Virus record (IMG/VR): IMGVR_UViG_2913112809_000002
Origin: a virus
Lineage: Duplodnaviria > Heunggongvirae > Uroviricota > Caudoviricetes
DNA: 64,000 bases
Direction: 5' to 3' (one strand)
In this document: positions 858 through 64,000 of the stretch, piece after piece
Position numbering within the stretch: the stretch's first letter is position 1
Layout: every line of letters begins with the position of its first letter
The notes under the pieces: generated by a model
Told to the model about the DNA's origin: nothing
Database searches by the model: none
The model's input: the letters and a program-made list of their open reading frames with translations, nothing else
Position numbers and translations under genes: made by a program

Positions 858-1295
858 TTATTTTAAGCACTGCGTCCTGATGTACTCCTGCAGGTAGTTA
901 ACCTGCGCGGTTATCCTGTCGATTCCACTTCGGAGACGGTAATAATTGAGTTCAGCATCTGCTGTAAGTCTTGGGCTTTCTCCATCGCCCATGCCGCTGG
1001 CTCCGGTCGTTGACTTTGCACAGGTGGCGGCGACTTGCAGGCGCTTACGCCCAGCAGAAACATCAGCACGGAGACTTTCGATAGTCGCGTTAGCATCAGC
1101 AAGCTCCTTTGTGTATCTGGCGTCGAGTTCTGCTACGTCACGTTGACGCTTCTGCATGTCAGCGATTATGGATGCGGCTTTGTCGCGCTGCTCTTTATAG
1201 GCGATGGCGTTATCACGGTAATGATTAACAGCCCATGACAGGCAGACGATGATGCAGATAATCAGAGCGGAGATAATCGCGGTTAACCTGCTCAT
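858..1295 (-). CDS. Rz: Rz i-spanin
   Basis: Translation [30 protein letters not shown]... resembles lambda/P21 Rz; N-terminal TM; start overlaps R stop. Confidence 0.8.
911..1102 (-). CDS. Rz1: Rz1 o-spanin lipoprotein, embedded in Rz in +1 frame
   Basis: Embedded ORF with lipobox LLGVSAC and proline-rich stretch [13 protein letters not shown]. Confidence 0.6.
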
Positions 1296-1789
1296 TGCTG
1301 CCCCCACAAACAGACTTCACGCTCAATCTCACGACGGGTCATCAGCCCTTTCCATTGCTTACCGCCAGCGTATGTCCAGCGACGTAGCTGGTCACATGCG
1401 CCCTTGATATCGCCCTGGTTGATTTTGCGAAGAAGCGTCGATGTTCTGAAATTGCCTGCGCCCACGTTATAGACGAACGAATAAAGAGCGCCGCGCGTTG
1501 TTTCCGGTATATCGACTTTGATGTACGGGTTAATTTGTCTGGCGACCGTGGCAAGGTCTTTATTCAGGAGGGCTTTGCATTCTGCTTCGGTATACGTTTT
1601 ACCGGGAATGATGTCTTTTCCTGTATGCCCGTAACATACAGTCCATACACCAACAATATCTTTGTATGGTATGTAGCTGACACCTTCCAGACCATCGTTA
1701 CCACTTGGTCCAGTGATTAACACAGATGCTATAGCAATAGCCCCGCCACCAATAGCAGCAGCAACGGCTTTTCGTAATGATGGAGGCAT
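1292..1789 (-). CDS. R: SAR endolysin (T4-type lysozyme, phage 21 R-like)
   Basis: N-terminal signal-anchor [20 protein letters not shown] followed by lysozyme E...C/D...T catalytic region. Confidence 0.85.
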
Positions 1790-2004
1790 TATTCACCTCT
1801 CGCAGCCTTTCGTCTGTCTTCTCTGATTTTGAAATACAGATTTGTCAGATAAGTGAGAAAACCCAACACAAGGCTTCCAAGCACTCCAATCGCAGCCCAC
1901 TGTGACGGACTGACCTGATCCAACCACTGCAAAAACCAGTATCCTGCACTACCAGCAGATGTTCCGTAGGCAATGCCAGTTGAGATTTTGTCCATTGATT
2001 TCAT
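1789..2004 (-). CDS. S: Pinholin, phage 21 S-like (dual start MKSMDK)
   Basis: 71 aa, [63 protein letters not shown] matches S21 pinholin as recalled. Confidence 0.85.
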
Positions 2005-2122
2005 AGCAACGCCTCCGCCAGTAACGGATTGCGTAGTTCTTATATTGGGAAGGGGAAAAAAGAAGGCCGCAGCGTAACTATCACTGATGAATTCAGGATA
2101 GCCAGTGGCTACGGCTCAGTTA

Positions 2123-2198
2123 TGGTGCTGGTTAACGGACTTGAACCGCTACCCATTCGCTTACAAGGCGACTGCTCCACCACTGGAGCTAAACCAGC
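2123..2198 (-). tRNA. tRNA-like gene, anticodon UGU (Thr) by manual fold
   Basis: 76 nt; acceptor GCTGGTT/AACCAGC, D-stem GCTC/GAGC, anticodon loop CTTGTAA, T-arm GGTTCAAGTCC, encoded CCA. Confidence 0.55.
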
Positions 2199-2203
2199 AT
2201 ATT

Positions 2204-2278
2204 TGGCGGGACAGCGTGGACTCGAACCACGATAAGAAGGTTAACAGCCTTCCGTAATGACCTTTATACGACTGACCC
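2204..2278 (-). tRNA. tRNA-like gene, anticodon GUU (Asn) by manual fold; one acceptor-stem mismatch, possibly degenerate
   Basis: 75 nt; anticodon stem GAAGG/CCTTC, loop CTGTTAA, T-arm CGTGGTTCGAGTCCACG, 3' GCCA; T:T mismatch at acceptor pair 4:68. Confidence 0.4.
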
Positions 2279-2280
2279 AA

Positions 2281-2341
2281 ATAAAAAATCCCGAAACCGT
2301 TATGCAGGCTCTAACTATTACCTGCGAACTGTTTCGGGATT
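2281..2341 (-). terminator. tR'-like terminator downstream of Q/PR'
   Basis: Inverted repeat tcccgaaac/gtttcggga with inner gcagg/cctgc stem, followed by T-run on minus strand. Confidence 0.5.
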
Positions 2342-2552
2342 GCATTTTGCAGACCTCTCAGCCTGCGATGGTTGGAGTTCCAGACGATACGTCGAAGTGA
2401 CCAACTAGGCGGAATCGGTAGTAAGCGCCACCTCTTTTTATCTCACTACCACAACGAGCGAATTAACCCATCGTTGGGTCAAATTTACCCAACCTTATTC
2501 AAAAAGTCAATATCATGCCGTTAATATGTTGCCATCCGTGGCAATCATGCTG
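2342..2552 (-). promoter_or_regulatory. Late promoter PR' / qut region (inferred from position)
   Basis: Intergenic segment between Q stop and tR'-like terminator, as in lambda. Confidence 0.35.
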
Positions 2553-3176
2553 CTAACGTGTGACCGCATTCAAAATGTTGTCTGCGATTGACTCTTCCTT
2601 GTGGCATTGCACCACCAGAGCGTCATACAGTGGCTTAACAGTGCGTGACCAGGTGGGTTGAGTAAGATTTGGGATTAGCATCGTTACAGCGCGATATGCG
2701 GCGCTTGCTGGCATCCTTGAATAGCCGACGCCTTTGCATCTTCCGCATTCTTTCTCAACAACTCTCCCCCACTGCTCTGTTTTTGCTATATCAACCGCAC
2801 GGCCTGTACCGTGACAATCTCTGCATCTTGCGCCCGGCGTCGCGGCACTACGGCAATAATCCGCATAAGCGAATGTTGCAAGCACTTGCAGTACCTTTGC
2901 CTTAGTATTTCCTTCAAGCTTTGCCACACCACGGTATTTCCCCGATACCTTGTGTGCAAATTGCATCAGATAGTTGATAGCCTTTTGTTTGTCGTTCTGG
3001 CTGAGTTCGTGCTTACCGCAGAATGCAGCCATTCCGAATCCGGCTTGTGATTGCGCCATCCCCATAGCAGCCATCACATCAGTACCAGAAAGAGAGTCAG
3101 AAGCCGTGGCCCGTGGTGAGTCACTCATCATCGGGCTTTTTGGCGAATGAAATTTAGCCACGCTTTCGAGTCTCAT
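2553..3176 (-). CDS. Q: Late antiterminator Q (lambda Q-like)
   Basis: 207 aa, [28 protein letters not shown]... with CxxC...CxxC zinc motif; matches lambda Q as recalled. Confidence 0.85.
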
Positions 3177-3838
3177 GCGCCTTCTCCCTGTACTTGAATC
3201 AATGTGAGGTTTCCGCAGAACACTGCGCCGGTATCGATATACATCTGGTTGGCAAACTTGAGTGGTTTCACTGCTGGCGTATGACCAAAGATGAACGTGT
3301 CCGCGCCTTTGATTTCTTTCACGATCCCGTCTTGTGAGTTGCTGATTCGTTCGCGGTTCCAGATTACCTGCTGATGATCAACTGGCTTTCCAAACTCGTA
3401 TTCGTCACAAGGATAATCGGCGTGGCAGATGACATATTTTTTATCTTTGCTCACCAGTTCGATGATTAACGGAAGTTCATCTGCTTTATGGGCAAGAGCT
3501 TTAGCCAGAATTTCTTTGTCGTAATCGAGATTAAAGAACCAGCCACCGCCATTAAGCATCCAGTGATTGACGTTTCCGCGCTCTGATAAGCCATCAATCA
3601 TCATTTGCTCATGGTTTCCACGTACAGCTCTGAACCAGGGGAATGTGATTAATTCCAGGCATTCGACGTTCTCTGTACCGCGATCGACCAAATCGCCAAC
3701 CGAGATAAGCAGGTCTTTTTTGGTGTCGAATCCTATCGTCTCCAGTTTTTTCATCAGGTTCGTGTAGCATCCGTGCAGATCGCCAACTACCCAAATATTT
3801 CGGTATTTGCTGCCATCAATTTTTTCGTAATAGCGCAT
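3173..3838 (-). CDS. ninI: Ser/Thr protein phosphatase NinI (lambda orf221-like)
   Basis: [23 protein letters not shown]...GNHE metallophosphatase motifs; start chosen at internal Met matching lambda. Confidence 0.85.
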
Positions 3839-4022
3839 CTCTTTCACTCCATCCGCGATGAACCATGAGAACGTCGTTGACGATGGCGTGCATTTTCCCG
3901 TCTTTATCATCAACGTATTTTCTGACCGTACCGCGACTACATTTCAGTCTGCGTGCTACTTCTGTCTGGTTTCCGTATGCTTCAACGAGCATGTCTGGAA
4001 TGGTTTTTACTGAGAACGTCAT
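3816..4022 (-). CDS. ninH: NinH
   Basis: 68 aa [39 protein letters not shown]... matches lambda NinH; 23-nt overlap with ninI as in lambda. Confidence 0.85.
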
Positions 4023-4630
4023 GCGGCCTCACTTCTGCTATTTCGCAGGTCTTTGAGTTTCTGTTGGTACTCTGCCTTGATCGCCTTGCACTCTTCGATA
4101 GTCCAGCGATGGCGGTTATGGTTTGATTCGATTTCGTCTACTGCTTCCTGCCCGATGCGGCTAATCAGTTCGACGCGATACGGAACGAGATTTCCGCTTT
4201 TGTGCTGGTTGCACACCACGCATTGCTTGTGAATATTGCGTTCATCAAATCGGAGTTGAGGTGCCGCAGCAGTTGTCCGGTAATGTCCGGCATCCCACTG
4301 AGCAGACGTGAGCGTTCCGCACGAGATACATGGTAAGTCGCGGTCTCTTTCTCTGATGAAGGCGTTTACGGCTTGTTGGGCTTGTTTAATCCAGTAACTG
4401 CGGGGCTTTAAGGCGAGTTTTCGAATCTTAAGTTTATCTTTCTGTTTCTGCTCCTCTCGTCGTCGTTTCTTCTCTGCTGCTTTTTCCGCTTTTTTGCGTT
4501 CTTTACTTCGTCGTTCGAGTGCTATCTTGGTTCCACACTCTGGAGAGCACCACCACTGATTAGCGAATGCAGGGTGAAACCATTCCCGACATTCATCGTT
4601 TTTACATCGTCTTCGCGCTGGTTTAGCCAT
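4019..4630 (-). CDS. ninG: NinG (Rap recombination endonuclease)
   Basis: 203 aa [33 protein letters not shown]... matches lambda NinG. Confidence 0.85.
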
Positions 4631-21374: not shown

Positions 21375-21734
21375 ATGCGTATAGAGTTTGTTTTGCCTTA
21401 CCCGCCGACGGTGAACACCTACTGGCGACGTCGTGGCAGCATATATTTTGTATCAAAAGCCGGTGAGCGTTATCGCCGTGATGTGGCGCTTATTGTTCGT
21501 CAGCAGCGGCTGAAATTAAACCTGTCCGGAAGGCTGGCGATAAAGATTATTGCAGAGCCACCGGATAAGCGCCGTCGTGACCTGGACAATATTCTGAAAG
21601 CTCCACTGGATGCGCTGACGCATGCCGGACTACTCATAGACGACGAGCAGTTTGATGAAATCAATATTGTGCGCGGTCAGCTCGTTCCTGGTGGGCGGCT
21701 GGGGATAAAAATCACAGAACTGGAGTGCGCATGA
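21375..21734 (+). CDS. rusA: Holliday junction resolvase RusA
   Basis: 119 aa with DKRRRDLDN...LIDDEQ RusA motifs. Confidence 0.85.
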   Translation: MRIEFVLPYPPTVNTYWRRRGSIYFVSKAGERYRRDVALIVRQQRLKLNLSGRLAIKIIAEPPDKRRRDLDNILKAPLDALTHAGLLIDDEQFDEINIVRGQLVPGGRLGIKITELECA

Positions 21735-22420
21735 ATAACCAGTATTTACAGTTTGTTCGTGAGCAACTCATGATTGCCACCGCCGATTTGAGTGGAGCAA
21801 CAAAAGGACAGCTTGAGGCCTGGCAGGAGAATGCCATGCTTGAAACAGGGCGTTACAGGCGTAAAAAAATCCGGTACCGCGATGAAGTGACCGGAAAAAT
21901 GATAACGCGGGATAATCCACCAATCCCGGGAAAACAATCGCTTGCGAAAGGTTCGTCAATTCCTCTGGTAAGTCAGGTTGAGTTTTCGACATCATCATGG
22001 CGACGGGCAGTTCTGTCTCTTGAAGAACATCATAAAGCCTGGTTGTTGTGGTGTTACAGCGGCAGCATTTGCTGGGAACACCAGATCGCGATAACGCAGT
22101 GGGTGTGGAATGAATTTAACGCACAATCCGGTACCAGAAAAATTGCAGGGAAAACGCTGGAGCGCCTGAAAAAATTAATCTGGCTGGCGGCACAGGATGT
22201 CAGAGGATGGATTACCGGGCGTGAGGTCTACCAGCGACAGGAACTTGCCAGGCTGTGTGGAATTAAACCTGACAACTGGAGCCATAATTATGCGAACTAC
22301 TGGCGTGAGATGTGCGACATTTTTAAGAATCTTGATACAGAATCCTTGATTTGCACAGTGAAAATGAGAACGCAACAAAAAGCGACCTTTTCGCGACGAG
22401 ATGTTGCAAAAATCAATTAA
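21725..22420 (+). CDS. Late antiterminator Q-like protein (Qin quuQ-type)
   Basis: 231 aa; position before terminator, tRNAs and lysis genes. Confidence 0.6.
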   Translation: MRMNNQYLQFVREQLMIATADLSGATKGQLEAWQENAMLETGRYRRKKIRYRDEVTGKMITRDNPPIPGKQSLAKGSSIPLVSQVEFSTSSWRRAVLSLEEHHKAWLLWCYSGSICWEHQIAITQWVWNEFNAQSGTRKIAGKTLERLKKLIWLAAQDVRGWITGREVYQRQELARLCGIKPDNWSHNYANYWREMCDIFKNLDTESLICTVKMRTQQKATFSRRDVAKIN

Positions 22421-22484
22421 ATCGCGTACATTTCGTGTAAATTTGATATTTTGCCGATTTTATACGCGATGGCAAAGCAAGCAA

Positions 22485-22510
22485 AACCCGCCGCCGAGCG
22501 GGTTTTTTTA
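22485..22510 (+). terminator. tR'-like terminator after second Q
   Basis: cccgc-cgccgagc-gggtt hairpin followed by T7. Confidence 0.5.
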
Positions 22511-22744
22511 TGTCCGCAAAATGGCGTGGAAGAAAAAATTAATCAGATTGTAACTGAGATAAAAAACAATCGTTAAATATGCATTTAATAATTTCTTTAT
22601 TTCATAAAAAATAAAAACATATACGTATATTTACAAATCTTGATATGATTTTCCATTGAAAAGAGAGCTGGTATTATTAATATCGGTCCCCGGTTCCGAA
22701 GGGGATGTAAGCGCGGTCATTTTTATTTCTCTTGAGGAACCAAT

Positions 22745-22820
<76 letters not shown>

Positions 22821-22823
22821 TAT

Positions 22824-22898
<75 letters not shown>

Positions 22899-23120: not shown

Positions 23121-23148
23121 AACCGCCGAACCAGGCGGTTTTTTTTAT
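23121..23148 (+). terminator. Intrinsic terminator after tRNA pair
   Basis: accgcc-gaacca-ggcggt hairpin followed by T9. Confidence 0.55.
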
Positions 23149-23420
23149 TTCTTCTCCGGACAAAAAAAAGACACGAGCATCCTGGAATACTCGTGGGACA
23201 AGGTACTTGGTTAGCAATTTGCGAGAGGGTGAAAAAAATGGCGCGGCTGTCGGATTAAAGCCGCGGGACAAAGTCCATGAAGAATAATAAGTATCAGTCT
23301 CCTACAGGAGACGAGTTGATATTACTAAGCTTTAAAAATGGTTTAAATCCTCAGATTAACCTTAATTTCAGGTAAGTCTTATTTCATTTCTTCGCGCCGC
23401 GCCCGGCGCACATCAAAAAC

Positions 23421-23524
23421 CACAGAGCCTTTCAGGGGTGAGCTTACGGGATGGTCAGTGTGACTTTCTCTGTGGGCTGGTCACTCCTGGGGCGCAGGCT
23501 CACCCACTAAAAGGAAAAGTCACG
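23421..23524 (+). promoter_or_regulatory. Conserved ~100-nt leader element, copy B1
   Basis: Homologous to 25646..25754 and to minus-strand 640..760. Confidence 0.45.
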
Positions 23525-23950
23525 ATGTTTGGTATTTTCAAAAAGAAAACCCGCAAGGCCATTACCGAAGTGAAGAAGATGGAGAACCGCGACGCAGTGG
23601 AGGCGACCGTCTGGGGTGCGTATTCCATTGCATACGCTGACGGCACCTGTGACGCGAAAGAAATCGCGGTACTGGAGAAAACCATTGCAGCACTTCCTGC
23701 CTTTGCGCCGTTCTCCGGTGAGATTGCACAAATGAGCGCAAATATCCGCGCCCGTTATGAAGCGTCACCGCGTAGCGCGAATGCTCAGGCATTGCGTGAA
23801 CTGGCTGATGTGGCAGGAACAGACGACGCGGTGAATGTGCTGTGCCTGTGTCTGGATATCGCTGACCAGGATGGAATTGGTCCGGAGGAAGAAGCACAAC
23901 TCAAGAAAATTGCTCAGGCGCTTCAGCTACCGCTGGAGCAGTACCTGTGA
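23525..23950 (+). CDS. TerB-like domain protein (cargo between tRNAs and lysis genes)
   Basis: 141 aa MFGIFKKKTRKAITEVKKMENRDAVEATVWGAYSIAYADG..., helical; TerB assignment from recollection only. Confidence 0.45.
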   Translation: MFGIFKKKTRKAITEVKKMENRDAVEATVWGAYSIAYADGTCDAKEIAVLEKTIAALPAFAPFSGEIAQMSANIRARYEASPRSANAQALRELADVAGTDDAVNVLCLCLDIADQDGIGPEEEAQLKKIAQALQLPLEQYL

Positions 23951-24037
23951 AAAGTGCGCGCCTTGTGCTGGCTGCCATCCTGCTGTTTCTGGTAGTGGCG
24001 GTGGATTTCACCGGACGGCTGATGTCGGTGCTGGCAG

Positions 24038-24583
24038 ATGGTGTGCTGGTGGCGATGGTGCTGGTCGTGCTCCGGCCTTTACTGCGCAAATCTGAATAAC
24101 ACCACACAAAAGGCATCTGCGGGTGCCTTTGACGGGGTGTTGTTTTTTACGGGCCGCTGGTGGCCCTTTTTTATTTGCAGGAGAAGTTATGGCAGCAGAA
24201 CCTTGTCTGGTGGCGGGGCGGTGGGGCTGACGATAGGTGGAGCCAGTGTATTCGGGATTCTGACCAACACCGATTTCGGCGTGGTTATTGGCGCGTTTGC
24301 AGGGGCGCTTTTTGTTGTCACACAGCAAAAGGAAGTGCCTGTCTGGCGGATGTGTATCCACCTGCTGGTTGCTTTCGTGGTTGGCGTACTTGGTGCGGGT
24401 GTGGCTGCGTCTTTCATGCAGTGGTTAACGCACTACGACGACAAGCCACTGGACGCTCTGTGTGCGGTTGGTGTTTCAGCCCTGTCAATTAAGGCGCTGA
24501 CGTTCCTGTATCAGCAGGAGATTACATCGCTGTTCGGTTTTCTGACGAAGCTGCGCGGCGGAGGAGGAGGAAATGGTAAGTGA
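24038..24583 (+). CDS. Membrane protein (2-3 TM), possible holin/antiholin; start uncertain
   Basis: Hydrophobic segments; good RBS+ATG at 24189 is in a different frame. Confidence 0.3.
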   Translation: MVCWWRWCWSCSGLYCANLNNTTQKASAGAFDGVLFFTGRWWPFFICRRSYGSRTLSGGGAVGLTIGGASVFGILTNTDFGVVIGAFAGALFVVTQQKEVPVWRMCIHLLVAFVVGVLGAGVAASFMQWLTHYDDKPLDALCAVGVSALSIKALTFLYQQEITSLFGFLTKLRGGGGGNGK

Positions 24584-24848
24584 TGTTGCCGGGCAGGTGA
24601 ATGTATTCGTCTGTGTGGCTGTTGTGCTGGGATTGCTCGTGTTCCGGTGGAGGGATGCGGCCCACAAACCCGTCATGGCCTGGCTGACTTATCTGCTGAT
24701 GCTGGGATACGCAATTATTCCGCTGCGCTGGCTTTACGGTACCTACATGCAGTCGAGCTGGCTGGTCGTGGTGCTGAATCTTGTTTTCTGCGCACTGATA
24801 GTCTGGTCGCGTGGAAACGTATCAAAAATTATTTCATTACGGAGGTGA
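24573..24848 (+). CDS. Putative holin (three TM helices)
   Basis: 91 aa, SD ggagga before ATG, immediately upstream of endolysin. Confidence 0.45.
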   Translation: MVSDVAGQVNVFVCVAVVLGLLVFRWRDAAHKPVMAWLTYLLMLGYAIIPLRWLYGTYMQSSWLVVVLNLVFCALIVWSRGNVSKIISLRR

Positions 24849-24850
24849 GT

Positions 24851-25228
24851 ATGCCGGGGAAATTCAGATTCAGTCGTCGTAGCGAAAAAAATCTGGAGGG
24901 CGTCAAACCACAGCTGGTTGCCGTTGTTCGCCGTGCGCTGGAACTGACGGATGTTGATTTCGGTATTACGGAAGGTCTGCGCACGAAAGAACGCCAGAAA
25001 CAGCTGGTTGCTGAAGGAAAAAGCCAGACCATGAACAGCCGCCACCTGACCGGTGATGCGGTGGATGTTGTGGCCTACATTGGCAGCCAGGTGTCATGGG
25101 ACTGGCCTCTGTACGAGAAAATCGCGCATGCATTTAAGCAGGCTGCCGCAGAGCTGGGAACTGCCATCGAATGGGGTGGGGACTGGCGGACGCTTAAAGA
25201 CGGCCCACATTTTCAATTGAAACGATAG
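24851..25228 (+). CDS. Endolysin, peptidase M15 family (L-alanyl-D-glutamate peptidase type)
   Basis: MPGKFRFSRRSEKNLEGVKPQLVAV...H..D..DV...W.DGPHFQL motifs. Confidence 0.7.
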   Translation: MPGKFRFSRRSEKNLEGVKPQLVAVVRRALELTDVDFGITEGLRTKERQKQLVAEGKSQTMNSRHLTGDAVDVVAYIGSQVSWDWPLYEKIAHAFKQAAAELGTAIEWGGDWRTLKDGPHFQLKR

Positions 25229-25754: not shown

Positions 25755-26450
25755 ATGAACGAGATGATTTCTGTCGATCATGAAATATCCATGAGCAGTC
25801 TGGACTTCCTGAATAACATTATTAATCCAGCTCGTATAGAGGCTGGAGAAGTCCCTCACGAACCGCGTAAGTTTCTTGCAAAAATTGAAGACGAGCTTGA
25901 GCTTGATGGAACCGGAAAAAAATTCCGGTTAAACAATAACCAGACAAGAACAGCATATTACGATCTGGACTTCGACCAAATGATGCTCGTTGGCATGAGA
26001 GAGTCTAAGGCTGTTCGGCGTTCTGTGCTGGCAAGACTTAAAGCGATGCACGGTATACAAATTCCTCAGACCTTACCTGATGCATTGCGATTTGCGGCAA
26101 AATTGGCAGAGCAAAAAGCAGAGCTGGAAAATAAACTGGCAATAGCGGCACCGAAAGCTGAATTTGTTGATAATTATGTTGAGGCATCCGGCCTGATGGG
26201 GTTCAGGGAGGTTGCTAAATTGCTCGGTATTAGAGAAACCGATTTCCGGCTGTTTTTGCTGGAGAACGGCATAATGTATCGTCTTGCCGGAAAAATGACG
26301 CCTTACTCACATCACCTGGATGCTGGTCGTTTTAGCGTGAAAACCGGAGAAGCAGGCAATGGTCATGCTTTTACACAGGTTAAGTTCACTCCAAAAGGCA
26401 TTCAGTGGGTTGCTGGCTTGATCGCTGCTTGGAGAGCCACCGCAGCATGA
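25755..26450 (+). CDS. Antirepressor-like protein (KilA-C-type C-terminal domain)
   Basis: 231 aa; C-terminal FVDNYVEASGLMGFREVAKLLGIRETDFRLFLLENGIMY. Confidence 0.6.
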   Translation: MNEMISVDHEISMSSLDFLNNIINPARIEAGEVPHEPRKFLAKIEDELELDGTGKKFRLNNNQTRTAYYDLDFDQMMLVGMRESKAVRRSVLARLKAMHGIQIPQTLPDALRFAAKLAEQKAELENKLAIAAPKAEFVDNYVEASGLMGFREVAKLLGIRETDFRLFLLENGIMYRLAGKMTPYSHHLDAGRFSVKTGEAGNGHAFTQVKFTPKGIQWVAGLIAAWRATAA

Positions 26451-58325: not shown

Positions 58326-58555
58326 GTTGTTGTAGCTGATTGCCACAACCGGAAGCGCACGGACGAAGATGCCGGCGGCACGCAACAGAGGGAGAAATAA
58401 CTTCGCCGTGCGCTTTCGTGTTGTGCCCTGACTTTTCAGGGATATATCCTTTCAGTAAACTGTCAGTGCCGGATTCTTATCCGTGTCCGGCGCACGACAA
58501 CACGCTGTCACGTGTGGTCTCCATTCTCAACCAGTAACCTCAATGGAGGATAAAA

Positions 58556-58764
58556 TGCCAAACAAACCAATACATCCGCTTATTGAAAAACAGATTGAAT
58601 GTCTGGTTAATCAACTCAGGCAATCAGGGTTATTAAAAACTCATTCAGAGCTAGGGCTCACAGAATCGGCATTCGACGATAAATTAAACAATGCGCTTTA
58701 TAATGGCATCATTGATTACAATCGTGGTGCTGGTCGCCGTGGCCCTGCTGGTACAGCTTTGTAA
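58556..58764 (+). CDS. Hypothetical protein, convergent with 58765..59403
   Basis: SD ggagga before ATG; 69 aa. Confidence 0.35.
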
Positions 58765-59403
58765 TTACCAGTTAATCCAGAGCGGATAGTGTTCAGCATA
58801 AATATAGCTATACACATCCAGGTTGTATTTGCGGTCTGTCCTTAGCAGGTCGCAAATACAGGCCGCAGCTTCCAGGGCAGCAGCTTTGTTGCTGAATAAC
58901 CATGTAGCAACATTCCAGCGATTATCTGTATCCCACTCTTTTGCGAGAGTTGACACCACGAAGGAGCCGTTGGTGTTGCCATCAAATACTTCCGTTTCCA
59001 GATTTTTAAGTAATGCCTGGTGAATTCTTGCCAGGTATTCAGTCGGAATTTCGCCACGAATTCTGATAAGGTTGTCATAAACAAACATATTCCCCGTATA
59101 TGGCGATTTTTCTTTCCTGCATTTTAAGCCAGCATCACGGGTAAACTGGTCAATTTCTTCTTCGGTTTGTTTCGTATTGATGTTTTGCGTTATCGTTTCT
59201 GCAATGGGCTTTGCTTTATTTTCTACACAATGATTGTTTGTGAACGAATCTGAATACAGTCCGGTAAAAGAATTGCGGACATGATTTGATAAATTTCTGA
59301 TGAACACTTTATCTACTAATATCATTGGGTTCCGCGCCAGTTGCGAGCGAATCACATCAGCGGCCATTTCCTGTATTGATATTGGTAAATCTTTAAATTC
59401 CAT
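58765..59403 (-). CDS. Hypothetical protein (212 aa) in early-left operon
   Basis: AT-rich ORF between ydfB-like gene and DicF-like region; no recognised domain. Confidence 0.5.
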   Translation of the reverse strand: MEFKDLPISIQEMAADVIRSQLARNPMILVDKVFIRNLSNHVRNSFTGLYSDSFTNNHCVENKAKPIAETITQNINTKQTEEEIDQFTRDAGLKCRKEKSPYTGNMFVYDNLIRIRGEIPTEYLARIHQALLKNLETEVFDGNTNGSFVVSTLAKEWDTDNRWNVATWLFSNKAAALEAAACICDLLRTDRKYNLDVYSYIYAEHYPLWINW

Positions 59404-59414
59404 CTTTAACCCCG

Positions 59415-59543
59415 TTAGTCGATAGATTTTGTCGAACTGGAAAGCGCCTGTTTAAACTCACTGAAGCTGAGAGTTTCTTCGCCTTCGGCAAGGCCTTCGA
59501 AGTATTCTTCGTAAGCCTTTTCCATGATTGCGTCGAAATCCAT
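59415..59543 (-). CDS. ydfB: YdfB-like small protein
   Basis: Manual translation MDFDAIMEKAYEEYFEGLAEGEETLSFSEFKQALSSSTKSID (42 aa). Confidence 0.55.
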   Translation of the reverse strand: MDFDAIMEKAYEEYFEGLAEGEETLSFSEFKQALSSSTKSID

Positions 59544-59544
59544 A

Positions 59545-59700
59545 TCACTCACCTGAGTTTCTTTCCAGCCAGCGACGTGCGCCAGCTTCGGTTTTAAACG
59601 TTTTGCTTTTGGTATACGTCATCGCGGTGAACGTACCGTCCTGGTTGGGGAACACGCCGCATACCAGAGATTCGTTGTTGCCAAGATCGATAGTATCCAT
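59545..59700 (-). CDS. ydfA: YdfA-like small protein
   Basis: MDTIDLGNNESLVCGVFPNQDGTFTAMTYTKSKTFKTEAGARRWLERNSGE. Confidence 0.6.
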   Translation of the reverse strand: MDTIDLGNNESLVCGVFPNQDGTFTAMTYTKSKTFKTEAGARRWLERNSGE

Positions 59701-59878
59701 GTTGACCTCATTTCCCCTTAACGCCGGGGTAGCGGAACAAAAACCTGCTGCATAGTTAAAGTTGAACCCTGCCGTCATGTTCTTACGCCTCGGGCTGGCT
59801 ACTTACCCCCTGACCACTGCCTGGTAACTCGAAGTATTGCCCTGCGTTCTGTGGGGCGGGGTGGGTTGGTATGCAATA

Positions 59879-59955
59879 AATCTAAAAGTATTTAGTTTTA
59901 TAGTCAAGGGGAATCTAAATTAATTTAAAAAAAAGGTCGGCATAACCGACCTTAA
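59879..59955. promoter_or_regulatory. OL-like operators and terminator downstream of cI-like gene
   Basis: aatctaaaagtatttagtt resembles OR palindrome aatctaaaaatacttagatt; ggtcgg/ccgacc hairpin with T8 on minus strand. Confidence 0.4.
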
Positions 59956-59974
59956 GTTCAAGGACATGGCAGTG

Positions 59975-60622
59975 TTATAGGTTGAACTGTACACCTTTTG
60001 CTACGGCAACAATTTTACACTCTGGCGTAAGCAAGGATGATTGATAGCGCGGATTGAGAGGGCTTAAATACACAAGTTTTCCATCAATAACTAATTTTTT
60101 TATAGTCATAGACGGTTCATTTGTAAGTGGATCTGGAACTATTACAGCGACAATACTGCCATTTTTATAACTTTCTCCTGGTCTTAGGATCACAGTGGCA
60201 CCAACCGGGATACTCGGCGACCCTGAGGGGTTATGCATAGTGTCATCAGGCATTGAAACGGCAAAATCACCTTCCACTACATCAAAGAATGTGGTGATCC
60301 TATCGACATTTCCCATTGTTTTCTCTCCTTCTAAGATTAGGAAAGAAATCGCGTCACCCCACGAAAAGTAGGGGATCTTGGTGCCTGGATTGCTCTGCAC
60401 AAAAGATAGTTCAGGAGACGATACTCCATACAGGAGATAGGACTCAGTAGTTCCTAATGCTTGGGCTAACTTACTTAGAGCTTTGCTGCCGGGTTCGTTT
60501 AGATCTTTCTCCCAGTACCCTATAGTAACCCCAGTCACGCCTGAAAGCTTACCCAGTTCTACCTGGGTGAGTCCCTTATCTTTTCTGAGTTTCTTAAGCC
60601 TGATGCCAAGGCTTTCCATCAT
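59975..60622 (-). CDS. CI-like repressor (HTH + S24 peptidase)
   Basis: 215 aa; N-terminal HTH LTQVELGKLSGVTGVTIGYWE; C-terminal peptidase-like domain. Confidence 0.85.
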   Translation of the reverse strand: MMESLGIRLKKLRKDKGLTQVELGKLSGVTGVTIGYWEKDLNEPGSKALSKLAQALGTTESYLLYGVSSPELSFVQSNPGTKIPYFSWGDAISFLILEGEKTMGNVDRITTFFDVVEGDFAVSMPDDTMHNPSGSPSIPVGATVILRPGESYKNGSIVAVIVPDPLTNEPSMTIKKLVIDGKLVYLSPLNPRYQSSLLTPECKIVAVAKGVQFNL

Positions 60623-60719
60623 TTTCTCCCGCGAGTTGAATATAAATTATTTTAGATTGCATTGACCTAAAAAAAAATTATCCTGTAATCTAAAAATACT
60701 TAGATTTTAGGAGAGTGAA
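60623..60719. promoter_or_regulatory. OR operator/promoter region
   Basis: TTAGATT / AATCTAA half-sites at 60653, 60687 and 60700. Confidence 0.5.
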
Positions 60720-60947
60720 ATGCGAGTTGATGAACTTGTTCAGTTTTTTGGCTCTGTTCAGAGGGTCGCTGATTTTTATGGGATAACCCGCGAAGCTATT
60801 TACATGTGGCGTAAGCGCCCCGGTGAAATAGTTCCGAAAGGGAGAGCTGCGGAAGCTGCTGCATACTCCAAGGGAAAATTATCTTTGAACCCAGAACTTT
60901 ACAAAAAGAATGATACCACCCGGGACGAAAGGAAGAGTGATTCATGA
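60720..60947 (+). CDS. Cro-like HTH regulator
   Basis: 75 aa, SD aggagag, divergent from cI-like gene. Confidence 0.6.
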   Translation: MRVDELVQFFGSVQRVADFYGITREAIYMWRKRPGEIVPKGRAAEAAAYSKGKLSLNPELYKKNDTTRDERKSDS

Positions 60948-61369
60948 AAATCAAGCATGAACACATCCGCATGGCGATGAAAGCCTGGGCGCATCCGGAT
61001 GGCGAGAAAGTACCAACTGCGAAGATTACCAAAGCATATTTTGAACTGGGAATGACGTTTCCGGAGCTGTACGACGATTCACATCCGGAAGGCCTGGCTC
61101 GTAATACCCAGAAAATTTTCCGCTGGGTGGAGAAAGACACCCCTGATGCGGTTAAAAAAATTCAGGCGCTTTTACCAGCGATCGAAAAGGCAATGCCACC
61201 TCTGCTGGTGGCCCGAATGCGCAGCCACAGTTCAGCCTATTTTCGGGAGCTGGTGGAGACGCGGGAACGACTGGTGAGAGACGCTGATGATTTTGTCGCA
61301 GTGGCAATCACTGGTTTCAATCAGATGAATCGTGGTGGTCCGGCGGGAAATGCCGTGGTGATGCACTAA
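60944..61369 (+). CDS. CII-position regulator (YdaT-like by recollection)
   Basis: 141 aa, translationally coupled to cro-like gene. Confidence 0.4.
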   Translation: MKIKHEHIRMAMKAWAHPDGEKVPTAKITKAYFELGMTFPELYDDSHPEGLARNTQKIFRWVEKDTPDAVKKIQALLPAIEKAMPPLLVARMRSHSSAYFRELVETRERLVRDADDFVAVAITGFNQMNRGGPAGNAVVMH

Positions 61370-61392
61370 AAGCACGGTGTTCGGAGTTTTAT

Positions 61393-62340
61393 ATGAGCAG
61401 CAAGCTTCATGGTCTTGTCTGGGAAGGGTGTGCCTTCACCGGCATGATCTTATCCCGGGTAGCAGTAATGGCTCGCCTTGCAGACTACAGCAATGACGAA
61501 GGTGTGTCATGGCCTGCAGTGGAGACTATTCGTCGTCAGATTGGGGCAAAGAGTGAATCAACGGTTAAAGCTGCGATAGCGGAACTGGAAAAGAACGGCT
61601 GGCTGACGAAGGAGGAACGTAAGGTCGGTGGGCGTAATGTAAGCAATATTTACCGCCTTAATGTGGAAAAACTTGAAGCAGCAGCGGCGGCGGCGCGTGA
61701 GGCATATAAACCGAAAAGAAAAATTAACCCGGTAAAAAATGACCCGTCAAATATTGACCCCTCAACGGTTGACCCGTCAAATTTTGATGGATCAACAGTT
61801 GATAAAAAACAGCCGGTTAGGGGGGCGATGGTTGGCCCCGATCCGTCAGTATTAAAACCTGATCCGTCAGATAAAAGATCTTCTTGTCCGGACGCTTCGC
61901 AACCGGACCCGCAGACGGCTGAACAGGATTTTTTAACCCGACACCCTGACGCTGTTGTGTTCAGTGCGAAAAAACGCCAGTGGGGCAGCCAGGAAGATTT
62001 GGCGTGTGCGCAGTGGATCTGGGGGCGAATCGTGAGTCTTTACGAGCAGGCCGCCAGCGATGATGGCGAGCTCATGCGACCGAAAGAACCCAACTGGGCT
62101 GCATGGGCCAATGATGTGCGCACAATGCGGATGCTGGATGGCAGAACTCACAGACAAATTTGTGAAATGTTTGGTCGGGTACAGCGGGATCCATTCTGGG
62201 TAAAAAACATCATGAGCCCGTCAAAGCTCCGCGAAAAATGGGACGAACTGGTCATTCGCCTGGGGCGTTCGCCTGTACAGCGTTGTGTGAATCACATTTC
62301 TGAACCGGATACCGAAATTCCGCAGGGCTTCAGGGGGTGA
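61393..62340 (+). CDS. Replication initiator O-like protein with internal iterons
   Basis: 315 aa; N-terminal HTH-like region; NDPSNIDPSTVDPSNFDGSTVD peptide repeats encoded by DNA iterons. Confidence 0.55.
   Translation: MSSKLHGLVWEGCAFTGMILSRVAVMARLADYSNDEGVSWPAVETIRRQIGAKSESTVKAAIAELEKNGWLTKEERKVGGRNVSNIYRLNVEKLEAAAAAAREAYKPKRKINPVKNDPSNIDPSTVDPSNFDGSTVDKKQPVRGAMVGPDPSVLKPDPSDKRSSCPDASQPDPQTAEQDFLTRHPDAVVFSAKKRQWGSQEDLACAQWIWGRIVSLYEQAASDDGELMRPKEPNWAAWANDVRTMRMLDGRTHRQICEMFGRVQRDPFWVKNIMSPSKLREKWDELVIRLGRSPVQRCVNHISEPDTEIPQGFRG
61735..61810. repeat. Iteron array (putative origin)
   Basis: Direct repeats tgacccgtcaaat / ttgacccctcaacgg / ttgacccgtcaaatt / ttgatggatcaacag. Confidence 0.5.
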
Positions 62341-62380
62341 GTGTTTATTTCAGATCATGAGGTAATTTTCAGGAGGGTTT

Positions 62381-62797
62381 GTGGCAAAAGTATTTACACA
62401 AGAAGAGCGGGAAAAAATTAAGGGGCAGGTTGTTGAACTCGTGCGCCAGAGCGGGCGCGAGACGCTACGACAACTGGAAGCTAAGACGGGTGCGACAAGA
62501 TATCTGATGAGTGTTCTCGCCAGAGAGCTGGTTGCCAGTGGCGATGTATACAATTCTGGCTACGGATTATTTCCGTCTGAACAGGCTCGTAAGGACTGGA
62601 TAAAGGCCCGCAAAAAGATGTCGAAAGCAGCAGTGAAAAAAAAGAGCGACCCGGACCTGGTTTATTCATTACCAGACGGAGAAATACGCCGCTACGACAG
62701 GCGTCTGAACATAATCTGTCGCGAGTGTCGGAAAAGCGAAGCTATGCAGCGTGTACTGGCGTTCTATCAGGGTAATTTTCAGGAGGTGCTTTTGTGA
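62381..62797 (+). CDS. Hypothetical protein (replication-module position)
   Basis: 138-aa ORF downstream of initiator. Confidence 0.4.
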   Translation: MAKVFTQEEREKIKGQVVELVRQSGRETLRQLEAKTGATRYLMSVLARELVASGDVYNSGYGLFPSEQARKDWIKARKKMSKAAVKKKSDPDLVYSLPDGEIRRYDRRLNIICRECRKSEAMQRVLAFYQGNFQEVLL

Positions 62798-63372
62798 GCA
62801 AAATTAACTATCAGGCACTGCGTGATGCGGCACAGAACGCGAGAGATTTAGGTGGGATTAAGAATTACAAGCGAGGTGAGCAAGCTGTTGCCGAATTTGA
62901 GTCCTTGATAACGCCACACCTTGTGCTTGCGTTACTGGATGAGCTGGAAATTAAAAGCAAACGAATTAACGAGTTAATCAAGGGCGGTGAAAACGCCAAA
63001 TACGTGACGGAAATTTTCCGACTTGAGAAAGAACGCATGGCTCTGGCGGCGGAGAATGCTGGGCTGAAGGCGATATGTGATGACCGTCGCAGGTTCATCA
63101 TGAATGCGGTGCAACTTGGGCATATCAAAGCGCCAGCAATGAAAACAAAATCGGGGCTTGAAACAATTCGTATTGCTATATCACCACAAAAGCCCACTCC
63201 GGCCACCGATGTTTTTCTGGCTGAAGTACGGGCGTGGGCGTTTAACGACCTTTGCGCGGCGTTTGTCAGGCACGCAAAAGTTGCAGGGCTGGATGATGCC
63301 GATACCGTAACGCTTAATGAAGCAACGGATGCGCTGCTGCATTGTGTGGAACAGCTTCGCGCTCCAGAATAA
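62794..63372 (+). CDS. Ea22-like protein
   Basis: GTG start (M)SKINYQ...; homologous to 16068..16631 and 17110..17310. Confidence 0.5.
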   Translation: MSKINYQALRDAAQNARDLGGIKNYKRGEQAVAEFESLITPHLVLALLDELEIKSKRINELIKGGENAKYVTEIFRLEKERMALAAENAGLKAICDDRRRFIMNAVQLGHIKAPAMKTKSGLETIRIAISPQKPTPATDVFLAEVRAWAFNDLCAAFVRHAKVAGLDDADTVTLNEATDALLHCVEQLRAPE

Positions 63373-63469
63373 TTAAATTTAGTACTGTAAATAAAATTTA
63401 ATCCTTAACCGGAGGGATTCCTGCAACCTCAATACATCAGGAGTCCGTCCGAAAGGGCGGTAATGAAAA

Positions 63470-64000
63470 ATGACAGAATTAACCAAAGAGCAATTAATCG
63501 AAGAAGCCAAATTAAAAATAGCGATTGCGAAATGCCACCCCAATTCAGGGATGGCGCGGGTAGAGGGCGAGTTATTCAAAATTGCACTGACATCGCTGGA
63601 AGTAGAACCGATAGCGTGGGAATGCGGCGAAAACATAATCCTGTTTAATCCTGACACAGTTGAAGCATATGCAAAACGTGCGGAGATATCACCTAAACCA
63701 CTATTCGCCGCCCCGCCAGTGCTGCCTGATAGACCGGTAGTATCGCTGGAAGCAGAGCCAGTTGTAGTAAACGACGACATGGCTTACGCATTTCACCATG
63801 CGCTTTCTGACTCATCGCTTGGCTCTGATGAAATCGAAGAAATTAAAACCGGGTTGCGTGCTGCCTTTGCCAATGCCACCGTCCAGCCAGCACTGATAGT
63901 GCCGGATGAAATCGAGCCAGACGATAGCAATACGTTTGATTATGTTGATGGCTGGAATGCCTGCCGCGAGGCCATGCTTCAGGATAATAGGGGGAAGTAA
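63470..64000 (+). CDS. DUF551-like protein
   Basis: 176 aa; IALTSLEVEPIAWE motif shared with 18061..18591; stop at window end. Confidence 0.5.
   Translation: MTELTKEQLIEEAKLKIAIAKCHPNSGMARVEGELFKIALTSLEVEPIAWECGENIILFNPDTVEAYAKRAEISPKPLFAAPPVLPDRPVVSLEAEPVVVNDDMAYAFHHALSDSSLGSDEIEEIKTGLRAAFANATVQPALIVPDEIEPDDSNTFDYVDGWNACREAMLQDNRGK

Follow-up and report, generated by a model that had tools for sequence, protein, structure and literature searches.

What is the gene that stands between the tRNA genes and the lysis genes of this prophage, when would it be expressed, and what could its product do? The first-pass annotation of the 64,000-nt stretch of DNA analysed here (hereafter the window) had placed an open reading frame of 141 aa there, coding for a helical protein of TerB-like character. 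We found this reading frame, tciA, at exactly 23525-23950 on the + strand. The annotated span stopped short of the whole unit, however, as it left out the overlapping partner gene tciB (23947..24099). The two-gene unit and the kinship with the tciA family of phage P1 were both absent from that annotation. The features of the locus are listed in Table 1.

Table 1 Features of the tciAB locus and of a second late region in the same window.
Feature	Position	Strand	Evidence or remark
Antiterminator Q	21725..22420	+	Phage_antiter_Q PF06323, 283 bits; PHROG 304; start of late region
Terminator-like hairpin just after Q	22483..22514	+	Terminator scan; scores on both strands
σ70 promoter-like sites, between Q and tRNAs	22650..22683	+	TTTCCA-16-TATTAT with TG; TTGAAA-16-TAATAT
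tRNA-Thr (TGT)	22745..22820	+	ARAGORN; Rfam tRNA 71.8 bits
tRNA-Gly (TCC)	22824..22898	+	ARAGORN; Rfam tRNA 65.6 bits
tR'-like intrinsic terminator, between tRNAs and module	23121..23148	+	AACCGCC-loop-GGCGGTT then T8
tciA 5' leader	23392..23524	+	133 nt; 5' GC hairpin and long helix, predicted
tciA	23525..23950	+	426 nt, 141 aa + stop; TerB-family protein; ATG start
tciB	23947..24099	+	50 aa; DUF3927; GTG start overlaps tciA stop (GTGA)
Intrinsic terminator, between tciB and lysis genes	24151..24175	+	GGGCCGCTGGTGGCCC then T6
First holin gene (Phage_holin_8)	24189..24583	+	PF16931, 75 bits on 24038-frame ORF
Second holin gene (Phage_holin_3_7)	24573..24848	+	PF05449, 59.5 bits; PHROG 217
M15 endolysin	24851..25228	+	Peptidase_M15_4; PHROG 465; 125-aa call in L102/L103
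Second-prophage NinG	4022-4630	-	
Second-prophage Q	2556-3176	-	PF03589
Second-prophage tRNA-Asn/Thr	2123-2278	-	
Second-prophage P21-type holin	1792-2004	-	

TciA is a TerB-family protein

The ATG of tciA follows an AAGGA ribosome-binding site located ~9 nt upstream. A longer mechanical reading of 170 aa from GTG 23438 was dropped because homologous leaders vary by single-base indels that break this frame. A 19-codon upstream reading frame (ATG 23451) was also ruled out, as its ATG is missing from some of the homologous leaders and 1-nt indels occur among them. The encoded protein is acidic (pI 4.8) with a basic N-terminus (MFGIFKKKTRK).

We searched TciA against family databases and found a match to Pfam TerB (PF05099) at 31.8 bits, above the curated gathering cut-off of 24.4 bits, with the best stretch covering only residues 11-57. 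PHROG 632 ("tellurite resistance") matched the protein from end to end (E 9e-66), and the NCBIfam search returned only a sub-threshold match to DjlA. Among 1.8 billion cluster representatives, 174 relatives of TciA were found, most of them 140-150 aa long and 27-45% identical over their full length. All 68 of the diverse relatives that were aligned matched Pfam TerB. The profile built from these 68 matched Klebsiella TerB (2jxu) with an E-value of 5.2e-27, aligning profile positions 6-144 to chain residues 11-150, and it also matched 2ou3 and 2h5n. The homology to 2jxu is visible through profiles only, as pairwise BLASTP of TciA against this chain was not significant. Single-sequence phmmer against the PDB gave only spurious matches to PNPase and histones, so the family profile was needed to reach a solved TerB structure.

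The AlphaFold2 model of TciA, computed from an alignment of 38 close homologues, contains six helices (mean pLDDT 86.2, pTM 0.82) and has the all-helical TerB fold. Its nearest structures were the TerB-family entries 2h5n and 2ou3; 2jxu itself was not recovered in the fold searches with the model. The duplicated A-x-A-D-G-x5-E motif of TerB is present at D39 G40 E46 and at D116 G117 E122, and G40, E46, G117, and E122 are each conserved in at least 90% of the 68 relatives. TciA is a predicted soluble six-helix protein of TerB fold. The first-pass annotation had described a helical, TerB-like protein and had proposed Pfam and structure prediction as checks; both returned TerB, and the profile match to 2jxu and a 45%-identical paralogue that scores 60 bits (TciA2, below) agree with them. 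We regard the TerB identity and the anatomy of the module as secure.

TciA is similar in length to the TerB of terZABCDE operons (2jxu, PF05099; 141 aa compared with 151-153 aa) and shares with it the all-helical fold family, the duplicated ADG-x5-E motif, and the full-length profile match. In contrast to terZABCDE, the gene is phage-borne, its partner is a DUF3927 miniprotein, and TerC, TerD, TerZ, TerA, and TerE are not found near it. The gene tables list no TerC, TerD, or other Ter partner near tciA, where the neighbors are tRNAs, DUF3927, holins, and endolysin.

tciA and tciB form a two-gene cassette related to that of phage P1

The product of tciB matched Pfam DUF3927 (53.2 bits) and PHROG 1470 ("TciB-like"), and its hydropathy profile has two hydrophobic stretches, suggesting two membrane helices. 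To describe the pairing, we collected loci with a near-full-length TciA match from public genomes, viral contigs, and annotated records. A TciB homologue lies directly 3' of TciA in 97 of these 99 related loci. The pairing is therefore nearly without exception, and it persists across 45% TciA divergence, being found at the TciA2 loci too. One database protein of 196 aa (P0048) joins TciA to a P1-type TciB, with Pfam TerB and DUF3927 in a single chain; most likely it is no genuine fusion but the result of a frameshift where the two genes overlap (GTGA).

The closest named relatives are in phage P1 (NC_005856). TciA is 87.9% identical to the P1 protein (81.7% at the DNA level) and TciB is 46% identical to its P1 counterpart. 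In both phages a DUF3927 tciB overlaps the end of tciA, tRNA genes are close by, and the genes are accessory, non-essential cargo. A CRISPRi screen of P1 found tciA, tciB, and tciC to be dispensable (PMC10695390), and about half of the members of a P1-like subgroup have lost the operon (PMC9603915). The two differ in three respects. P1 has tciC, which is missing here: tblastn with P1 TciC found no match in the window, and a terminator directly follows tciB instead. The 133-nt leader is not in P1, where the homology begins at the ATG. Finally, the P1 genes lie downstream of the C1 operator/promoter of the ban operon, a repressor-controlled lytic unit, whereas the genes described here lie in a lambdoid late operon between Q/tRNAs and holins. 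As judged from these comparisons, tciAB is the lambdoid-prophage counterpart of P1 tciA-tciB, a portable two-gene accessory cassette.

The gene family is thus already known and already named in databases. The pair in E. coli prophages carries the NCBI labels "tellurite resistance TerB family protein" and "DUF3927 family protein", and the names tciA and tciB in the P1 GenBank record are based on homology.

The cassette occupies the Stx slot of a lambdoid late region

Upstream of tciAB lie Q, tRNA-Thr, and tRNA-Gly, and downstream lies a holin/holin/M15-endolysin cassette. In phage phiP27, ileZ-argO-stx2eA-stx2eB stand directly 5' of a holin-holin-endolysin cassette in the same layout, and the stretch that begins at the end of the second holin and includes the endolysin shares 90.7% nucleotide identity with the window. 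This matched stretch upholds the earlier claim that the gene sits where Stx phages carry stx. The cargo itself is unrelated, namely an AB5 toxin in phiP27 and a TerB-fold protein with a membrane miniprotein here. Many tciA loci are preceded by a Met(cat)/Arg tRNA array in place of Thr/Gly, and the annotated ileZ-argO array of phiP27 resembles this array.

A second lambdoid late region is present in the window on the - strand (861-4630), and we used it as an internal empty-slot control. Here only 119 bp separate the tRNAs from the holin, and the slot is empty; the region also carries phosphoesterase, lysozyme, and Rz. tciAB thus separates genes that are neighbors in related phages, and like a moron it has its own terminator (24151-24175). 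The base composition of the module does not set it apart from the lysis genes. The cargo status assigned by the first-pass annotation agrees with the empty slot in the second prophage, with the presence of the module in ~7% of E. coli genomes (below), and with the non-essentiality of the P1 genes (PMC10695390). Another late-region accessory, an antirepressor-like gene (ANT/KilAC domain, 231 aa; 25755-26450), lies just 3' of the lysis cassette.

The position next to the holins raises the question of whether TciA and TciB could tune holin triggering, acting through the adjacent holins or through membrane energisation. The lambdoid modules lie immediately 5' of several holin types, TciB is small and hydrophobic and of holin/antiholin size, and late co-transcription with the lysis genes is suggested (below). 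However, P1 and P1-like plasmids carry the module far from their lysis genes, beside ban, and several tciAB loci lack Holin8 or Holin3_7 neighbors. Because the slot is a general cargo site, as stx in phiP27 illustrates, the adjacency of tciAB and holins may be incidental. We consider a role in lysis timing improbable enough to be given little weight.

The first holin gene of the window contains a 1-nt deletion near 24202, in the fifth codon (AACC, compared with AACCC in L103, an assembly with identical TciA). The deletion puts the Phage_holin_8 domain in a different frame from the holin ATG, which has a good ribosome-binding site. The same deletion is found in L102. Either the gene is truly a pseudogene, in which case the prophage would be lysis-defective, or a homopolymer was misread in sequencing. 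A 181-aa reading frame from 24038, which overlaps tciB and the terminator, is a mechanical artefact.

Terminators on both sides suggest late, Q-dependent expression

Across otherwise unrelated phage backbones, homology runs from ~23382-23396, which is the left boundary of the leader in many of them, to ~24053-24180. We analyzed the flanks of the module in 71 unique contexts. In 46 of them a terminator ends ~145 nt before the ATG, abutting the leader, and in 59 there is one no more than 140 nt past the tciB stop; the stem sequences of the leader-abutting terminators vary. In a locus subset only (L031, L043, L045, and others), a shared segment of ~160 nt corresponding to 23233-23391, with no assigned ORF or RNA family, stands in place of the usual leader-abutting terminator. 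Just past the + strand terminator, a terminator-like hairpin was also seen on the - strand (23172-23195).

A scan for the σ70 consensus found no promoter-like site on the + strand in 23150-23525. As it covered this consensus alone, the leader may still contain a weak promoter or one read by another sigma factor. A σ54-like TGG..GC motif noticed by eye at ~23480 was rejected, as it is mis-spaced and lies inside a variable patch. Further upstream, the σ70-like sites between Q and the tRNAs are, from their sequence and place, a candidate for the late promoter pR'. From the terminators on both sides and the lack of a σ70 site in 23150-23525, we infer Q-dependent read-through. Q-antiterminated read-through from the late promoter would then be the main source of tciAB transcripts, which would be made in lytic growth. 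This late, Q-dependent timing is moderately supported by the sequence features. The terminator between tciB and the holin counts against it, as a moron expressed in the lysogen would equally require such a signal, and transcription under Q would make no use of it.

Under that alternative, tciAB would be a classical lysogenic-conversion moron, with a promoter of its own that is active in the prophage and a downstream terminator that insulates the lysis genes. The lysogen would gain protection from tellurite or from oxidative stress, from colicins, or from other phages. Besides the terminators that flank the cassette on both sides in most contexts, the literature that ties the ter operon to phage inhibition and colicin resistance speaks for this alternative, as do database names that read "tellurite/colicin resistance". 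On the other hand, the GC-rich leader and the sequence before it offered no σ70-like site, the P1 homologues belong to a C1-repressed lytic operon, the TerC/TerD needed for ter tellurite resistance (PMC12054061) are absent here, and the literature yielded no phenotype for tciA. We judge lysogenic conversion unlikely but deserving of appreciable weight, and favor late expression in lytic growth.

The terminator region just 3' of Q (22406-22511) showed sub-threshold Rfam similarities to isrK and isrJ, which are Salmonella prophage sRNAs, and to leader-peptide attenuators (19-23 bits, E 0.1-0.8). These probably reflect terminator-like structure only.

A conserved leader precedes divergent TerB alleles

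The leader was found to be 83-97% identical among loci with unrelated upstream flanks. Compared with loci L006 and L007, it is 83-85% identical, whereas the four-fold degenerate sites of tciA are only 38-41% identical. The gene does therefore sit behind a conserved leader of its own, as had been proposed from the sequence.

We then analyzed the predicted structure of this RNA. The leader is GC-rich, with a minimum free energy of -56.8 kcal/mol (z -2.7). RNAalifold, applied to 33 variants, predicted a 5' hairpin and a long helix in which a CCUUU (~23429-23433) pairs with the Shine-Dalgarno sequence AAAGG; the helix GGGUGAGC/GCUCACCC adjoins this pairing. The consensus structure has 35 pairs, and 98.2% of the cells are paired, compared with 34-47% when the partners were slid. 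Compensatory changes occur at 4 pairs in an alignment whose sequences represent three or four lineages only; none of 500 shuffles reached the covariation score, and 34 of 500 had at least as many pairs with changes in both partners. The modelled pairing and its modest covariation are suggestive of a conserved secondary structure. Two crossing 8-bp complements were also noticed by eye, CCACAGAG/CTCTGTGG and GGGTGAGC/GCTCACCC, which could form a pseudoknot or alternative folds. The consensus structure tested includes GGGTGAGC/GCTCACCC and not CCACAGAG/CTCTGTGG. None of the covariance models of Rfam 15 matched 23150-23525, even at E-values up to 1.

To find further instances, we scanned viral contigs with a 23-nt leader pattern, which uncovered at least 119 loci. 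Among the matches listed, 115 were usable, and in 58 of these the leader (84-95% identical) is followed by a different allele, TciA2. TciA2 is 143 aa long, is 43-45% identical to TciA over the full length, and matches Pfam TerB at 60.2 bits over residues 26-138. It has its own DUF3927 partner downstream and shares its first ~10 codons with TciA (loci L106-L118, L120, L170, and others). The arrangement suggests, as far as sequence comparison goes, that TciA and TciA2 alleles are swapped between conserved flanks. That the leader accompanies two TerB alleles only 45% identical suggests that the regulation, and not the protein alone, is under selection. This conserved leader, common to divergent TerB alleles, is what is new here and is the most interesting part of the locus. 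It provides a concrete handle on when the module is made.

The predicted long helix would sequester the Shine-Dalgarno sequence, and the leader may thereby gate the translation of tciA. We also considered a bolder proposal, in which the leader acts as a cis-regulatory RNA of a kind not yet described and specific to phage TerB genes, that is, a structured 5' UTR that hides the ribosome-binding site until a signal opens it. The signal could be temperature, a metal ion, or some factor of the phage or the host. A precedent exists in the Mn2+-sensing yybP-ykoY riboswitch, which controls TerC-family genes; regulation of TerB genes by a leader would be parallel to it. We put this proposal forward tentatively and think it rather improbable in this specific form.

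A proposed role at the envelope of the induced cell

The names of the family point to tellurite resistance. Resistance conferred by the ter operon requires TerC/TerD (PMC12054061). Because both partners are absent here, "tellurite resistance" is an unsafe functional call and should not be assumed in annotating TciA. Our literature search on tciA/tciB, DUF3927, and TerB with "moron" found no functional study and no phenotype; the names in use are derived from homology.

Work on other TerB proteins offers an analogy. TerB associates with the membrane, and its complex with TerC is a core unit (PMC12054061). TerB domains are also part of the anti-phage systems Shango and Bunzi, for which membrane surveillance has been proposed (bioRxiv 10.1101/2022.05.11.491447; PMC10250203). 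tciAB has the TerB domain and the proposed action at the membrane in common with these systems, but lacks their helicase and ATPase, or their fused transmembrane and lipid-binding domains. No defence model of PADLOC-DB 2.0 matched TciA or TciB.

By analogy with TerB-TerC and the TerB sensor domains of Shango and Bunzi, TciB may tether TciA to the inner membrane, where TciA could stabilise or monitor the cell envelope after induction. It would then probably keep out pore-forming colicins or superinfecting phages, or protect membrane energisation until the holin triggers. This physiological role of TciA-TciB is conjecture drawn from these analogies. For the explanation as a whole, which combines a P1-like cassette, late expression, gating by the leader, and an envelope role anchored by TciB, we see the chances as evenly balanced.

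The module occurs in ~7% of E. coli genomes and is under strong purifying selection

We searched 5426 complete E. coli genomes and identified the tciAB module in 391 (~7%). In 165 of these 391 genomes, the leader, tciA, and tciB were covered to at least 80%. Plasmid-borne places numbered 171 and are presumably P1-like phage-plasmids. The module was also found in 415 IMG/VR contigs.

Comparison of tciA with ten homologues gave dN/dS values of 0.02-0.07. Synonymous differences from the eight more distant homologues amount to 0.59-0.80 per site, which is near saturation, while the protein remains ~88% identical. These values indicate a functioning gene under tight constraint. tciAB is one of the commonest Stx-slot cargo modules of E. 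coli prophages, with very strong purifying selection and a constant miniprotein partner. The recent finding of TerB domains in anti-phage systems raises the interest of this cargo.

Such very strong purifying selection would also suit a conserved host target, as expected if the stand-alone phage TerB were a counter-defence decoy, imitating host sensors with TerB domains (Ter, Shango, Bunzi) or titrating them while the phage grows lytically. Validated defence systems do contain TerB domains, and the module lies in lytic transcription units of both phage types. A protein made late would arrive after the point at which it could protect the phage that produces it, however, and a decoy leaves the obligatory membrane partner TciB unexplained. 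We consider a decoy very improbable and retain the envelope role as the preferred reading.

Several records place the module in unexpected hosts. "Actinobacillus phage vB_Apl-pPE4" (L003, PP818812.1) has this enterobacterial module together with the lysis cassette (92% identity), and near-identical tciA genes were seen on short contigs (L004, L010, L019, L020) attributed to a Bacillota MAG, Pseudomonas lundensis, Acinetobacter, and Kocuria. These host assignments likely reflect mis-attribution or contamination in public data. Within the window, 58500-64000 is ~94% identical to the early or immunity region of yet another E. coli prophage, including HTH proteins, a YdaT-family toxin, and DUF977. 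This match to a further prophage indicates that the 64-kb window is largely a prophage patchwork.
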